Below are positions 1-4,658 of a DNA stretch of 4,658 bases, piece after piece. Within the stretch, counting starts at the first letter, position 1. Each line of letters begins with the position of its first letter. The DNA lies in IMG/VR virus record IMGVR_UViG_2531839374_000008. One strand, given 5' to 3'. Under the pieces are notes generated by a model. It was not told the origin of the DNA. It did not search any database and worked only from the letters and a program-made list of their open reading frames with translations. The position numbers and the translations under genes are program-made. Origin of the DNA: a virus (Duplodnaviria > Heunggongvirae > Uroviricota > Caudoviricetes).

Positions 1-543
1 CTGCCAGTTGCGCCAAATCTGCTGAACCAGACGTTCGCTCCTACAGCACCAAATCAGGTCTGGGTGGCGGACCTGACGTATGTTGCCACACAGGAGGGAT
101 GGTTGTACCTCGCTGGCATCAAAGATGTTTATACGTGCGAAATTGTCGGCTACGCCATGGGAGAGCGCATGACAAAAGAGCTGACAGGTAAAGCCCTGTT
201 TATGGCGCTCAGGAGCCAGCGCCCACCTGCCGGGCTAATCCACCACTCTGATCGAGGTTCACAGTACTGCGCATACGATTACCGGGTCATACAGGAGCAG
301 TCTGGTCTGAAAACATCAATGTCGCGTAAAGGTCACTGTTACGACAACGCTCCGATGGAAAGCTTCTGGGGAACGCTGAAAAATGAGAGCCTGAGCCACT
401 ATCGTTTTAATAACCGGGATGAAGCCATCTCAGTAATACGGGAATACATTGAGATTTTCTACAATCGTCAGCGTCGTCACTCTCGTCTGGGGAATATCTC
501 CCCGGCAGCCTTCAGGGAAAAATATCATCAGATGGCTGCTTAA
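1..543 (+). CDS. IS3-family transposase OrfB, C-terminal catalytic (DDE/integrase-core) fragment; 5' end lies outside the window
   Basis: Frame 1 is open from base 1 (LPVAPNLLNQTFAPTAPNQVWVADLTYV...) to TAA at 541-543. It carries the conserved IS3-family motifs WVADLTYV (first D), HSDRGSQY (second D) and YDNAPMESF (E). Overall it resembles retroviral-integrase-like OrfB of IS3-family elements. It is clearly different from the IS911-like OrfB that begins at 4297. Confidence 0.9.
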   Translation: MPVAPNLLNQTFAPTAPNQVWVADLTYVATQEGWLYLAGIKDVYTCEIVGYAMGERMTKELTGKALFMALRSQRPPAGLIHHSDRGSQYCAYDYRVIQEQSGLKTSMSRKGHCYDNAPMESFWGTLKNESLSHYRFNNRDEAISVIREYIEIFYNRQRRHSRLGNISPAAFREKYHQMAA

Positions 544-590
544 AAAAAGAACAAATGGTAGTGTCCGCTATTGCCAGTACACCTCATTCA
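1..590 (+). mobile_element. 3' portion of an IS3-family insertion sequence (distinct from the IS911-like copy at the right); right terminus inferred near 590
   Basis: Contains the C-terminal part of a DDE transposase (1..543). About 47 bp after the stop the sequence ends ...CAGTACACCTCATTCA (575-590), which resembles the reverse complement of the IS911-like left end at 3977 (TGAAGTGGCACACTG) and ends in the CA typical of IS3-family termini. An outward-facing TTGCCA (571-576) lies 14 bp from this inferred end. The exact boundary is an inference because the left end of the element is outside the window. Confidence 0.7.
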
Positions 591-619
591 AAGAAGCCTA
601 CATTGCTGAGTTCGACCGC

Positions 620-868
620 ATGGAGGCCGAACTGCGCCAGAATAACACCCCACCTGCTGACAAGATGATTCCGGGTGATGGTCGCACTCTGGTTGTTCAC
701 TTCGACAAATTCGGCAATGTCGAATTCACCGAAACCGTTCCTGATGGCGCACTGGTCTGTACCCTGGAGACTTTCCGGTTTTATCTGGAAAAACAGGGAT
801 GGACTCTTGTTAACCGGGGCGCAATTAAAAATATGACTGTGGAACAATTACTCAAAATTCATTGTTGA
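620..868 (+). CDS. hypothetical protein (82 aa from ATG 620); possibly the 3' remnant of a gene truncated by the upstream IS insertion
   Basis: Open frame with protein-like composition (MEAELRQNNTPPADKMIPGDGRTLVVHFDKFGNVEFTETVPDGALVCTLETFRFYLEKQGWTLVNRGAIKNMTVEQLLKIHC), stop TGA 866-868. The same frame stays open and protein-like upstream to the inferred IS end (...KEAYIAEFDR before the ATG), and there is no convincing SD before ATG 620. The part of the track ORF upstream of ~590 (449..) is transposase DNA read in another frame. Confidence 0.4.
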   Translation: MEAELRQNNTPPADKMIPGDGRTLVVHFDKFGNVEFTETVPDGALVCTLETFRFYLEKQGWTLVNRGAIKNMTVEQLLKIHC

Positions 869-878
869 GGACGCAATA

Positions 879-1007
879 ATGGAGACGTTATTACCAAACG
901 TTAATACGTCTGAAGGTTGTTTTGAAATTGGTGTCACTATCAGTAACCCTGTATTTACTGAAGATGCCATTAACAAGAAGAAAACACGAACGGGAGCTAT
1001 TAAATAA
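879..1007 (+). CDS. tiny hypothetical ORF (42 aa), speculative
   Basis: ATG at 879 preceded by GAGGA (867-871, 7-nt spacer); METLLPNVNTSEGCFEIGVTISNPVFTEDAINKKKTRTGAIK, stop TAA 1005-1007. Below the ORF-track size cutoff. Short and AT-rich, so coding status is uncertain. Confidence 0.15.
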   Translation: METLLPNVNTSEGCFEIGVTISNPVFTEDAINKKKTRTGAIK

Positions 1008-1064
1008 AATATGCATTGTTTCAATGCTGGCTCGTTTACGTCTGATGCCAAAAGGATGTGCACA

Positions 1065-1256
1065 ATGAATACAGTATTTGCACTCGTTCTGACGGTTTTT
1101 CTTGTTTCCGGTGAACCGGTTGACATGGTTACTGGCGTATACAGCTCAATGAAAGAATGTATGACTGCCGCAGCGAAACAGAAAATTCCCGGTGACTGTT
1201 ATCCGGTCGATAAAGTTATTCACCATGATAATAACGAAATCCCGGCAGGTCTTTAA
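1065..1256 (+). CDS. small hypothetical protein (63 aa) with an N-terminal hydrophobic segment (signal peptide or membrane anchor); family not recognised
   Basis: ATG 1065 preceded by AAGGA (1052-1056, 8-nt spacer), the best-supported of three in-frame ATGs (1011, 1056, 1065). Product MNTVFALVLTVFLVSGEPVDMVTGVYSSMKECMTAAAKQKIPGDCYPVDKVIHHDNNEIPAGL; stop TAA 1254-1256. Two Cys residues in the mature part. No lipobox. Confidence 0.5.
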   Translation: MNTVFALVLTVFLVSGEPVDMVTGVYSSMKECMTAAAKQKIPGDCYPVDKVIHHDNNEIPAGL

Positions 1257-1340: not shown

Positions 1341-1538
1341 ATGATTACCAGTTATGAAGCCACTGTTGTAACTACTGATGACATTGTTCACGAGGTTAAT
1401 CTGGAAGGAAAGCGTATTGGCTACGTGATTAAGACAGAAAATAAAGAAACCCCATTCACTGTGGTTGATATCGACGGTCCATCAGGCAACGTTAAAACAC
1501 TTAACGATGGTGTAAAAAAATGTGTCTGGTGCACATAG
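1341..1538 (+). CDS. small hypothetical protein (65 aa as encoded; may be ~91 aa if the frame break at A7 1514-1520 is repaired, ending at TGA 1613-1615)
   Basis: Strong RBS. Product MITSYEATVVTTDDIVHEVNLEGKRIGYVIKTENKETPFTVVDIDGPSGNVKTLNDGVKKCVWCT, stop TAG 1536-1538. Directly after the A7 run the -1 frame reads a clean, helix-like continuation (MCLVHIGKNLPAEKKAEFLATLIAMKLKGEI). Family not recognised. Confidence 0.6.
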   Translation: MITSYEATVVTTDDIVHEVNLEGKRIGYVIKTENKETPFTVVDIDGPSGNVKTLNDGVKKCVWCT

Positions 1539-1613
1539 GAAAGAATCTGCCCGCAGAAAAAAAAGCCGAATTTCTGGCAACTCTGATTGCAATGAAATTA
1601 AAAGGTGAAATCT

Positions 1614-1644
1614 GAAAAAAAGAAAGCCTGCACACTGTGCAGGC
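1614..1644 (-). terminator. putative rho-independent terminator oriented for the minus strand (possibly bidirectional)
   Basis: Perfect palindrome GCCTGCACA-C-TGTGCAGGC (1626-1644) immediately preceded on the + strand by an A-rich run (1614-1625, AAAAAAAGAAA), which gives a hairpin plus U-tract when read on the minus strand. There is no T-tract after the hairpin on the + strand. Confidence 0.3.
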
Positions 1645-1714
1645 CTGAGTGAAGAACCTGGGACATTTATTCATCACTCGCAGTAATTTTAATCTGAGTT
1701 GAGGTTAAAAAACA

Positions 1715-3517
1715 ATGAACACCGATAAACAAGTTTACCCACTGTATTACGAAGCAAAAAATGACAAAGTAAGAAAACGTCTCGGTATTAAAGGCGGTTT
1801 TTACTGGGCTGAAGCGAAAAAATTATCCATTGCCATCTCCCGTGGTGCTGTTGCGATTGACGATGCTGGATACGATGAAGATGACTTCAAAAAACCTGTT
1901 CGCGTCAATTTGCCCGTTGTTGATGACCTCCCACCAGAAGGCGTGTTTGATACGGAATTCTGCAACCGTTACGAAAAAGGCGGGGAAGATGGCATCACAA
2001 TGGTATTTATCGCGCCCTCACCCTCTGCGCAGGACAAACCAGCCAGCACTGACAATACCAATGTTAATGGCGAAGACATGACGGAGATTGAGGAGAATAT
2101 GCTACTCCCGATTTCTGGTCAGGAGCTGCCCATTCGCTGGCTTGCTCAACACGGCAGCGAAAAACCGGTAACGCACGTTTCACGCGACGAACTCCAGGCA
2201 TTACACATTGCACGGGCTGAGGAACTACCAGCTGTTACTGCCCTGGCTGTTTCGCATAAAACCAGCCTGCTCGACCCGCTGGAAATTCGCGATCTCCACA
2301 AACTCGTGCGTGATACTGACAAAGTTTTCCCTAATCCTGGCAATTCAAATCTGGGACTGATGACTGCTTTTTTCGAAGCATATCTGGATGCCAACTACAC
2401 CGATCGCGGTCTGCTGACAAAAGAGTGGATGAAAGGAAATCGTGTTTCACGCATCACGCGCACGGCTTCCGGTGCGAATGCTGGCGGCGGGAACCTCACC
2501 GATCGCGGCGAAGGTTTCGTCCACGATCTGACGTCGCTGGCGCGCGACGTAGCCACTGGCGTACTGGCCCGTTCAATGGACGTGGATATTTATAACCTTC
2601 ATCCGGCACACGCTAAACGTGTCGAGGAAATTATCGCTGAAAATAAACCGCCCTTTTCTGTTTTCCGCGACAAATTCATCACCATGCCTGGCGGGATGGA
2701 TTATTCCCGCGCCATCGTGGTTGCGTCAGTGAAAGAAGCACCGATTGGTATCGAGGTCATCCCCGCGCACGTCACTGAATATCTGAACAAGGTACTGACT
2801 GAAACCGATCATGCCAACCCTGATCCGGAAATCGTGGATATTGCCTGCGGTCGCTCCTCTGCCCCGATGCCGCAACGTGTAACAGAAGAAGGAAAACAGG
2901 ATGATGAAGAAAAACCGCAACCATCTTGCGCAATGGCAGATGAACAGGCAACGGCTGAAACAGTGGAACCGGATGCAACTGAACATCATCAGGACACGCA
3001 GCCGCTGGATGCTCAGTCACAGGTAAATGCTGTTGATGCGAAATATCAGAAACTGCGGACAGAACTCCATGAAGCCCGGAAAAACATTCCGCCCAAAAAT
3101 CCTGTCGATGCAGACAAATTACTGGCTGCCTCTCGCGGAGAATTTGTTGAAGGGATTAGCGACCCGAATGATTCGAAATGGATTCCCGGTCATCATATCT
3201 CCTCAAATGAAGTCAAAAAAACGGAAAATGAAGTGCGACAGACTGAAGATAAACAGCACCAGAACAGCGAACCGGAGGAGGGAACACCCTGCAATCAGAC
3301 TGGCGAGGATAACTGCCCTGACTGTGGCGCGGTGATGGGAGACGCAACTTATCAGGAAACTTTTGACGAAAAAAACCAGATGAAGCACAGGAAGAAGAGC
3401 CGAAGAAAACGGAAAAAGCTGATGATTTGTTGCCGGAGAACGCTGGCAGCGATCAGCATAATGATAGCAATAATGAAACTGGCGAAGATGAACTCAACTG
3501 GAAAAAACAGGTGTTGA
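1715..3517 (+). CDS. large hypothetical protein (600 codons as encoded), family not recognised; the 3' end appears frame-disrupted
   Basis: Uninterrupted 1803-nt ORF from ATG 1715 (GAGG at 1701-1704). The first ~380 aa look globular, followed by a long acidic low-complexity region rich in E/D/Q/T/P (from about nt 2870). After the A7 run at 3369-3375 the in-frame tail becomes implausible ([12 protein letters not shown]... then stop 3515-3517) while the -1 frame continues the acidic character. No Walker A, DDE, HTH or other motif I can confidently name. Confidence 0.8.
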
Positions 3518-3668
3518 TTGCGGCGGTTTACGGTTTATGTGCGAATCCTGCGTGCATAGCCTATGCGCCTGCAATCCCTGGCATCGCAATGATGATTGCC
3601 AACAAGCTTGAAAATTTTGGAGTGACCAGTGATGAGCGCTTACCCGATTTTTTGATCGTATTGAAGAA

Positions 3669-3929
3669 ATGGCATGGGCTCGTCACTACCAGCAGATCGT
3701 TCGTGAAGAAAAAGAAACGGAACTGGCGGACGATCTGGAAAAAGGTCTGCCTCAGCACCTGTTTGAATCGCTCTGCATCGACCATTTGCAACGCCACGGT
3801 GCCAATAAACAGGCAATCAGCCACGCATTTGATGATGATGTTGAGTTTCAGGAGCGCATGGCAGAACACATCCGGTACATGGCTGAAACCATTGCCCACC
3901 ACCAGGTTGATATTGATTTGGAGGACTAA
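3669..3929 (+). CDS. 86-aa ORF; either an independent small gene or the C-terminal segment of the frame-disrupted large gene
   Basis: ATG 3669 to TAA 3927-3929: [86 protein letters not shown]. Helical, charged and protein-like. The frame is open upstream to 3636 and there is only a weak SD (GAAGAA) before the ATG. Confidence 0.45.
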
Positions 3930-3976: not shown

Positions 3977-4012
3977 TGAAGTGGCACACTGAATTTGGCC
4001 ACCTGAACAGAG
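3977..4012 (+). repeat. left terminal inverted repeat (IRL) of the IS911-like element, about 36 bp
   Basis: Terminal TGAAGTGG... lies 72 bp upstream of the orfA start. The length is taken from what is known of IS911 (about 36-bp IRs). The inner boundary is approximate. Confidence 0.55.
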
Positions 4013-4048
4013 GTGATATGCTCACCTCAGAACAACACAGGTGCTCCA

Positions 4049-4658
<610 letters not shown>

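Follow-up and report, generated by a model that had tools for sequence, protein, structure and literature searches.

Single-base run-length changes, probably of mixed origin, break racC, a recE-like gene and gam in a Shigella flexneri prophage remnant

The window, by which we mean the whole stretch of 4,658 nucleotides analysed here, is the entire 4658-bp contig AMGB01000047.1 from the draft assembly of Shigella flexneri 1485-80. Its genes lie in the order rha'-dicB-ydfD-racC-(recE-N-like)-gam, preceded by the 3' end of an IS600 and followed by the 5' end of an IS911. It represents the non-functional remains of an early-left operon from a Rac/lambdoid prophage, enclosed by these two insertion sequences. 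The features are as follows.

1-586, plus strand: 3' part of IS600 (C-terminus of orfB, stop at 541-543), bounding the prophage remnant on the left.
587-868, plus strand: 3' remnant of a gene for a Rha-family phage regulator (82-aa ORF at 620-868), cut by IS600.
879-1068, plus strand: dicB (cell-division inhibitor), encoding 42 aa and not 62 aa because of a frameshifting extra A at 977-978.
1065-1256, plus strand: ydfD-like DUF1482 gene, intact (PF07358 match over 1-57/57).
1341-1615, plus strand: racC, broken at A7 1514-1520; 65 aa as written, with a TAG at 1536-1538, and the 91-aa RacC with an 8-nt run.
1715-3655, plus strand: recE-N-terminal-like gene without nuclease domain, broken at A7 3369-3375.
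3632-3929, plus strand: gam (RecBCD inhibitor), broken at T6 3648-3653; as written ATG...ATT TTT TGA, and the 98-aa Gam with T5.
3977-4658, plus strand: 5' part of IS911, with orfA at 4049-4351, an A AAA AAG motif at 4300-4306 and the start of orfB.

The IS600 part is 99.8% identical to an element annotated by PGAP as 'IS3-like element IS600', and its orfB portion matches the Pfam families rve, rve_3 and rve_2. Next to it, positions 582-837 match the end of the Rha CDS of locus L002 at 98.8%; the identical 82-aa Rha remnant product was found on 16 contigs, and the IS600|rha' junction is also present in L070-L074 and L077-L079. At the other end, the IS911 part is 99.6% identical to an 'IS3-like element IS911' annotated by PGAP, 682 nt of the window being aligned with 681 nt of that element. 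Its A AAA AAG is the known -1 frameshift motif of this element. At 4648-4650, 8 nt before the contig ends, the window has GGG where L005, L008, L009 and L069 have GG, and the additional G truncates orfB. The gam|IS911 junction is common to the window and L010. The gam|IS911 locus of E. coli O121 (L069) was considered as an orthologous junction and rejected, because IS911 sits elsewhere in it and only L010 shares the junction. IS insertions were also seen in the same genes of sister strains, in the recE-like gene of L010, at the gam start of L013-L022 and in dicB of L070-L079.

A preliminary description of this DNA had proposed that three reading frames break at A/T homopolymers, each repairable by adding one base. 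The observation was partly confirmed, and the interpretation drawn from it was partly supported. The three runs (A7, A7 and T6) do lie at a frame break each, and comparison with close homologues indicates that every break is a single-base indel, which the alignments place inside the run. Since runs of at least 6 nt cover 97 of the 4658 bases (2.1%) yet hold all three breaks, coincidence is not a concern. Adding one base restores racC and the recE-like gene, but gam is restored by removing one T. The changes are thus -1, -1 and +1, and not the same-direction errors that had been described. Two details were corrected as well: an in-frame A7 placed at 3219-3225 lies at 3215-3221, and a fourth frameshift, the extra A of dicB, had been left out of the list.

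As written, racC encodes residues 1-60 in frame, followed by 5 aberrant residues and the stop. The 31 codons said to continue the 65-aa ORF in the +A frame (1520-1615) indeed complete it. The merged 91 aa correspond to full-length RacC, matching NCBIfam NF007306 / PRK09790 over 1-91/91 with 204 bits (cutoff 171), and this repaired RacC was found on at least 999 contigs. A7 is present at this run in all ten other Shigella loci (L003-L012), which were fetched via the 65-aa product and come mostly from long-read (PacBio-era) assemblies, themselves prone to homopolymer miscalls. Across NCBI, Logan and ENA, 82 contigs encode the identical 65-aa product, that of S. dysenteriae CDC 74-1112 among them; the copies on Logan, ENA and short contigs enter this figure as counts and not as individual readings. 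The in-frame 8-nt allele occurs in 26 of 33 IMG/VR loci. None of 144 E. coli complete genomes has an exact match to the racC A7 stretch of the window, and the eight best E. coli matches listed at this run, spanning 82 nt, carry A8. In L003 and other A7 lineages, the region 3' of the run has gathered additional changes. Because it is common to many independent Shigella assemblies, which argues against an artefact, the racC A7 is best read as a genuine, inherited pseudogenisation. Some of the A7 calls in databases may be noise too, because the S. flexneri complete genomes are split at this run, with A8 in five and A7 in four near-identical loci.

As written, the recE-like gene ends at 3517 and encodes 600 aa, a product recorded as EJZ66711.1 of S. 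flexneri 1485-80 and present on one 4658-bp contig alone; with A8 and T5 it would encode 646 aa and end at a TGA 23 nt inside gam. The claim that the large gene reads on past its A7 when one A is added was borne out, RecE homology extending 40 aa further in that frame and homology to gp06 of Shigella phage 75/02 Stx continuing almost to the end of gp06. Over residues 1-591 the protein shares 85% identity with a 1042-aa exodeoxyribonuclease VIII, PF06630 is matched, and the RecE equivalog NF007259 is matched over positions 1-596 of 877 with 1064 bits, below its cutoff of 1269. According to this profile and the alignment, the C-terminal nuclease domain of RecE is absent from the protein, whose C-terminus matches the tail of gp06 instead. 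Residues 1-636 of the 646-aa form align with residues 1-678 of the 682-aa gp06, and the product is predicted to be a RecE-N-like protein and not exonuclease VIII. We also considered that the 646-aa gene could be an already dead recE remnant, as a 'missing C-terminus' note by PGAP would have it, and rejected this view, since the alignment with gp06 runs nearly from end to end. The gp06 protein comes from an inducible Stx phage, and its gene ends at gam.

The ten E. coli complete genomes compared at the recE-like run all have A8, as do 7/10 IMG/VR loci. The Shigella loci are divided, with A8 in seven (L003, L004, L006, L007, L009, L011 and L012) and A7 in three (L005, L008 and L010). Altogether, A7 was found outside the window in L005, L008, L010/L033, L027 and L030, whose backgrounds share 97.5-99.8% identity with the window; it recurs on at least four sequence backgrounds. 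The 600-aa product of the L008 type was found on 3 contigs, and also under NCBI accessions of other S. dysenteriae assemblies; the commonest 646-aa product was found on 57. In our judgement, the A7 of this contig could equally well stem from a mutational hotspot in a gene that has escaped selection or from repeated miscalling. When the frameshifted tail was searched against protein cluster representatives, other E. coli recE-like genes turned out to be frameshifted nearby.

The T6 had been placed in the large gene by the preliminary description. It belongs to gam, of which it forms part of codons 6-8 counted from the ATG at 3632. With T6, the ORF starting at 3632 stops after 7 codons, and the remaining 86 aa of Gam are encoded by the ORF at 3669-3929, starting at Met13. 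With T5, Gam matches Pfam PF06064 over 1-97/98 (E = 8e-56). T5 was found in all 35 relatives (12/12 NCBI loci, 13/13 IMG/VR loci and 10/10 E. coli genomes) and T6 in none of them, so that the window carries an extra T whose repair is a deletion. The proposed merging of the large gene and gam into one ORF, like the same-direction argument, fails because T6 lies in gam and contains a surplus T; in the T5 form the large gene stops shortly inside gam, and its phage homologue also ends at the gam start. The presence of the 86-aa Gam remainder on at least 1000 contigs could be taken as a sign that T6 is common. This idea was rejected, the S. flexneri copies having T5 and an IS at the gam start. T6 is private to the contig and seems to us somewhat better explained by an assembly over-call than by a strain-private mutation, which we nevertheless take as a substantial possibility.

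Intact DicB matches PF05358 over 1-62/62. A single A is present at the site of the dicB frameshift in L001, L004, L010, L070-L076 and L079 and in three IMG/VR loci, and the 42-aa product is confined to this contig and to Logan contigs such as SRR061723. The SRR061723 assembly, which may represent another strain, has the rare dicB allele of the window and is identical to it over 802-2013 except at the A-runs at 1557 and 1615. The changes from A to AA in dicB and from GG to GGG in IS911 are further private run-length changes of the window, and they hint at noisy reads.

Such changes bear on the leading idea of the preliminary description, according to which all three breaks would be homopolymer miscalls from flow-based or long-read sequencing, racC, the recE-like gene and gam being intact in the real genome. 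Consistent with this idea, the private indels of the contig are all run-length changes (the recE-like A7, the gam T6, the dicB AA and the IS911 GGG), an independent Logan assembly that shares the rare dicB allele departs from the window at just two other A-runs, and scattered run-length differences are present in other 454-era or PacBio-era assemblies (L004, L012, L003 and L030). We consider it very unlikely as an account of all three breaks, since the racC A7 recurs in all ten of the other Shigella loci fetched and its product comes from several sources, the directions of the changes are mixed, the dicB and IS911 changes affect short runs, and the L008-type 600-aa product is found in other S. 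dysenteriae assemblies.

It is also possible, if rather doubtful, that the three breaks and the dicB frameshift are all real mutations, accumulated while the genes of a prophage remnant, trapped in an IS-rich Shigella genome, gradually turned into pseudogenes. The racC A7 is lineage-wide, the recE-like A7 has turned up on several backgrounds, which an unselected slippage hotspot would produce, and the dicB AA is present in two assemblies. Moreover, IS600 and IS911 flank the segment, the rest of the prophage is absent, and IS insertions in relatives hit the same genes. Against a wholly mutational origin, the gam T6 is confined to the window among the relatives compared and the dicB AA is found in none of about 13, the window differs from its nearest relative L010 by 3 private indels and 7 substitutions, which is a high ratio, and the extra G next to the contig end resembles an assembly-end error.

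Compared break by break, the run lengths in homologous loci yield a different answer for each: the racC A7 is shared, the recE-like A7 is recurrent although most loci have A8, and the gam T6 is private. The reading that we favour, and hold to be probable, is that the three breaks are single-base run-length changes of mixed origin and direction in a prophage remnant, none of them designed. The anatomy, the directions of the indels and their distribution among relatives were obtained directly, whereas we infer the cause of the recE-like A7 and of the gam T6. In this scheme, the racC run would have gone from 8 to 7 nt by slipped-strand mispairing and then been inherited across S. dysenteriae, S. 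boydii and this S. flexneri strain, the recE-like run would have changed repeatedly from A8 to A7 on several backgrounds, and the change from T5 to T6 in gam would be an insertion confined to this contig. Of the causes that the preliminary description had offered, pseudogenisation thus holds for racC, and sequencing error is possible but unproven for the recE-like A7 and the gam T6.

The remaining cause that it had offered is slippage, which would make the runs functional recoding or phase-variation sites, where frameshifting or RNA-polymerase slippage sets a low level of full-length RacC, RecE-like protein and Gam. At racC the run forms an in-phase heptamer of the X XXY YYZ type, GT[A AAA AAA]TGT, on which a -1 shift would give exactly the wild-type 91 aa; the recE-like run similarly reads GA[A AAA AAC], and a +1 shift at UUU UGA would give exactly wild-type Gam. 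A Shigella precedent is the transcriptional slippage known for mxiE (PMC1088944). However, in-phase heptamers and exact repair are the automatic consequence of any 1-nt change inside a run, as when A8 loses one base. Selection against slippage-prone runs is evident from roughly 9 nt in many genomes (Baranov et al. 2005, PMC1088944), and the present runs of 7, 7 and 6 nt fall short of the ~9-nt length for efficient transcriptional slippage (PMC1088944). Homologues carry the in-frame allele, phage 75/02 has no run at the recE-like or gam site, and the changes gathered 3' of the racC run in A7 lineages also speak against such sites. A scan of the window against Rfam gave no match at E <= 0.1, and a conserved frameshifted two-ORF arrangement was not found among homologues in the 144 E. 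coli genomes, the IMG/VR loci or phage 75/02. Slippage rescue is therefore mechanistically possible but unsupported, we found no evidence for programmed recoding, and functional sites of this kind appear extremely improbable. It is just as hard to credit that the racC A7 allele, fixed in a Shigella lineage, is still alive, being expressed at a low set level as exact wild-type RacC by a -1 ribosomal shift on A_AAA_AAA, and gam T6 by a prfB-like +1 shift at UUU_UGA; if this were true, changes in run length would serve prophage genes as a dimmer switch. On the mixed account, any full-length product would come from background slippage alone.

The biological weight of these breaks is small, single-base frameshifts in homopolymers being routine in prophage remnants within IS-rich Shigella genomes and, as consensus errors, in older or long-read drafts. 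Their value is mainly for annotation: racC is a true pseudogene in the window, behind the label 'RecE family, incomplete' stands a complete RecE-N-like gene in frameshifted form, which Stx phages conserve and which ends at gam, and gam is a separate gene broken by an extra T. More generally, a series of 'fixable' frameshifts need not have one cause or one direction.

Homopolymer-length consensus errors are established for 454, Ion Torrent, PacBio and ONT assemblies. The window resembles such cases in that its private indels are all run-length changes and near-identical assemblies disagree at other runs, and differs from them by a racC A7 repeated in many independent assemblies and by the mixed directions. 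Programmed recoding is exemplified by the A AAA AAG of IS911 (-1), the CUU UGA of prfB (+1) and the U-run slippage of mxiE. The in-phase motifs at racC (A AAA AAA) and gam (UUU UGA) look alike, and the window itself contains a genuine IS911 site, but the arrangement at the breaks is not conserved, no stimulatory element was found by the Rfam scan, and the runs are shorter than efficient tracts.

Decay of Shigella genomes by pseudogene formation and IS insertion is well established. The remnant lying between IS600 and IS911, the frameshifts in four genes and the IS hits in sister strains all fit this pattern, except that a non-biological origin is possible for at least one or two breaks. Compared with the racC-recE region of the Rac prophage of E. 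coli, the window has a racC that is full-length once repaired and a large gene whose first 591 aa resemble exodeoxyribonuclease VIII, but its racC is frameshifted and it has neither the RecE nuclease domain nor recT. The layout also resembles the early-left recombination module of lambdoid Stx phages such as Shigella phage 75/02 Stx, where gp06 ('exonuclease VIII-like', 682 aa) is followed by gam, the recE-N-like gene lying directly upstream of gam and overlapping it in both. The repaired 646-aa protein shares 56% identity with gp06 over the aligned residues, including a conserved hydrophobic C-terminal tail, and Gam of the window gives a full Pfam match with T5. The recE-like gene and gam are frameshifted in the window, whereas homopolymers are missing from both break positions in the phage; and the module of the window ends at IS911 after gam, whereas the phage continues with bet and exo and the E. 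coli relatives have an AAA_24 ATPase after gam.

Between its two insertion sequence ends, the window carries a portion of the early-left operon of a Rac/lambdoid prophage, laid out as follows.

1-586: 3' part of IS600, 99.8% identical to a PGAP-annotated IS600
Between the IS ends, in order: 3' remnant of a Rha regulator gene, dicB, a DUF1482 (ydfD-like) gene, racC, a large recE-like gene and gam
1715-3514: recE-like gene as written, 600-aa product
3977-4658: 5' part of IS911, 99.6% identity

The 600-aa product is identical to EJZ66711.1/WP_005135629.1 of S. flexneri 1485-80 and occurs on a single contig in a collection of 15 billion proteins; this contig, AMGB01000047.1 (4658 bp), is the window itself. 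In IS911, orfA is joined to orfB by the motif A AAA AAG at 4300-4306, the known -1 frameshift motif of this element.

The three runs in which the preliminary description had placed frame breaks are all present (A7 at 1514-1520, A7 at 3369-3375 and T6 at 3648-3653), while an in-frame A7 given as 3219-3225 actually lies at 3215-3221. The window contains 15 runs of at least 6 nt, compared with about 4 expected from base-shuffles (maximum 11 in 500), and 13 of the 15 are A-runs on the coding strand. Together they make up 97 bases (2.1% of the window). All three listed breaks lie in such runs, and in alignments with close relatives each of the three runs contains a single-base indel. The coincidence of runs and breaks is real rather than due to chance, and slippage-prone tracts are unusually frequent in this region. 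Such homopolymer frame breaks are an ordinary and already-known phenomenon. The runs and breaks were thus correctly seen, but the third break was assigned to the wrong gene and is opposite in direction, and a further one, in dicB, was overlooked. Since the three changes are -1 (racC), -1 (recE-like) and +1 (gam), the argument for homopolymer under-calling from same-direction errors fails.

As proposed, adding one A to racC fuses the 65-aa ORF with 31 downstream codons, giving a 91-aa RacC that matches NF007306 end to end (204 bits for a cutoff of 171, full profile). This form is found on at least 999 contigs, and the merged ORF corresponds to the ancestral gene. Of the 144 E. coli complete genomes carrying the racC segment, none matches the window exactly, and the best eight listed align over 82 nt to the 81-nt query, that is, with an 8-nt run. 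Among IMG/VR prophages, the run has 8 nt in 26 of 33 (20 TA7, 5 A8 and one TAAAGAAA), 9 nt in three and A7 in four. The frameshifted 65-aa product was detected on 82 contigs, drawn from NCBI, Logan and ENA sources and among them one of S. dysenteriae CDC 74-1112. A7 was found in all ten Shigella loci retrieved with this product, some of them in complete genomes of S. dysenteriae and S. boydii with differing IS contexts. Judged by its distribution, the racC A7 is very probably an inherited frameshift, that is, true pseudogenisation, and a sequencing error seems improbable. Near-identical S. flexneri complete genomes are split between A8 (five) and A7 (four), indicating that some database calls are noisy or that the racC tract is hypermutable.

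In the recE-like gene, adding one A at 3369-3375 does give a frame in which the exodeoxyribonuclease VIII homology continues for 40 residues past the run. Homology to the 1042-aa exodeoxyribonuclease VIII ends at residue 591 of the repaired protein, and the protein has no RecE nuclease domain: NF007259 is matched at positions 1-596 of 877 only, below cutoff. A8, the intact state, was observed in 10/10 E. coli complete genomes, 7/10 Shigella loci (L003, L004, L006, L007, L009, L011, L012) and 7/10 IMG/VR loci. Outside the window, A7 is present in L005, L008 (S. dysenteriae), L010, identical in sequence to L033 (S. boydii CP026766), and the more divergent L027 and L030 (98.3% and 97.5% identity to the window). 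The L008-type 600-aa product was found on 3 contigs and the commonest 646-aa product on 57; the hypothetical repaired 646-aa form of the window is absent from the protein collection, where its 600-aa version is unique. A7 thus occurs on at least four sequence backgrounds, consistent with either a slippage hotspot in a gene that has ceased to be selected or a recurrent miscall, and in the window a real mutation and an error appear to us equally probable. In the S. boydii locus, the A7 is accompanied by an extra A (A6 to A7) at 3502-3507, 133 nt downstream, which brings translation back into frame after 44 aberrant codons and leads to a 570-aa product; this pair reflects either compensating mutations or paired miscalls. 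Called products of other E. coli recE-like genes (P0090, P0092 and P0093) enter the same alternative frame soon after a 17-residue motif, indicating that frameshifts recur across alleles in this part of the gene.

The T6 does not belong to the large gene but to codons 6-8 of gam, which starts with an ATG at 3632 and reads ATG AGC GCT TAC CCG ATT TTT TGA. T5 was found in 12 NCBI loci, 13/13 IMG/VR loci and all 10 E. coli complete genomes carrying the segment; none of these 10 is identical to the window, the matches listed spanning 80 nt against the 81 nt of the query. Since every relative examined carries T5, gam has one surplus T in the window, and its repair is a deletion, not the insertion proposed. 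The T5 form of gam encodes a 98-aa protein matching Pfam Gam over 1-97 of 98, and with T5 the recE-like gene stops at a TGA 23 nt inside gam. The frame after T6 looked protein-like because it is the overlapping gam frame, and the suggested recE-gam merged ORF is seen in no homologue. The T6 is on balance probably an error, although a real mutation is quite possible. An 86-aa Gam remainder on at least 1000 contigs was considered as a sign of T6 and rejected, as the S. flexneri copies concerned carry T5, with an IS at the gam start. In S. flexneri complete genomes (L013-L022, at about 4440-4500), an IS end adjoins gam just past the start codon position with T5 kept, so that gene callers give an 86-aa Gam from Met13. 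The gam N-terminus is lost there through the IS, a different route from the extra T of the window.

The fourth frameshift lies in dicB (879-1068), where a surplus A at 977-978 (A to AA; AAGAGAAAA to AAGAAGAAAA) leads to a 42-aa DicB. It is absent from about 13 relatives, and the exact product was found only on the window contig and short Logan contigs, SRR061723 among them. Another dicB allele (P0072) gives a similar 42-aa product, and elsewhere a neighbouring run is frameshifted (P0064). In IS911, GGG replaces the GG of other copies at 4648-4650, 8 nt from the contig end, truncating orfB; this looks like a contig-end assembly error. These two private run-length changes are indirect hints of noisy reads, which may also account for the recE-like A7 and gam T6. 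The Logan contig sharing the dicB allele points the same way, as over 802-2013 it differs from the window only in its A-runs at 1557 and 1615, each one base shorter, where the window matches relatives and the Logan contig deviates, as does the high indel to substitution ratio (3 private indels, 7 substitutions) to the nearest relative, L010. Conversely, real mutations in a decaying remnant would agree with a segment trapped between IS elements under no obvious selection, with IS insertions in the same genes of sister strains, and with the A7 of the recE-like gene in other assemblies. Among the interpretations first offered, pseudogenisation holds for racC, error may explain the other two runs, and the recE-gam fusion falls. 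A literature search on strain 1485-80 found nothing. The near-identical loci L003, L004, L005, L012, L019 and L030, which are long-read or older assemblies, vary by single bases at other runs, among them 1557, 3215, 2862, 3611, 3709 and 3895, as well as another racC tract in L019. Throughout this region, run lengths are noisy or hypermutable.

The motifs at all three breaks are classical shifty motifs. A -1 shift on GT[A AAA AAA] in racC yields exactly the wild-type RacC, a +1 shift on UUU UGA in gam exactly the wild-type Gam, and the recE-like gene contains GA[A AAA AAC]. However, such motifs arise automatically from a one-base change within a run, homologues carry in-frame alleles, and phage 75/02 lacks a run at either the recE-like or the gam position. 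Moreover, selection against slippage-prone runs is evident in many bacteria from roughly 9 nt upward (Baranov et al. 2005, PMC1088944), a length that none of these runs reaches. Programmed recoding is very unlikely, while low-level leaky expression is plausible as background. An Rfam scan of the window gave no match.

PGAP labels the recE-like gene (1715-3655 in the window, 1595-3643 in L080) "RecE family, incomplete, missing C-terminus", its E. coli orthologues being called incomplete because the nuclease domain is missing. This label is misleading, since the 646-aa form aligns nearly whole with gp06 of the inducible Shigella phage 75/02 Stx. The gene is rather a complete, conserved RecE-N-terminal-like gene of lambdoid and Stx phages devoid of the nuclease domain. 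Residues 1-636 of the repaired protein align with 1-678 of the 682-aa gp06 at 56% identity, both share a conserved hydrophobic C-terminal tail (AAVYGLCANPAC...MIAN.LENFG), and the gp06 gene likewise finishes where gam starts.
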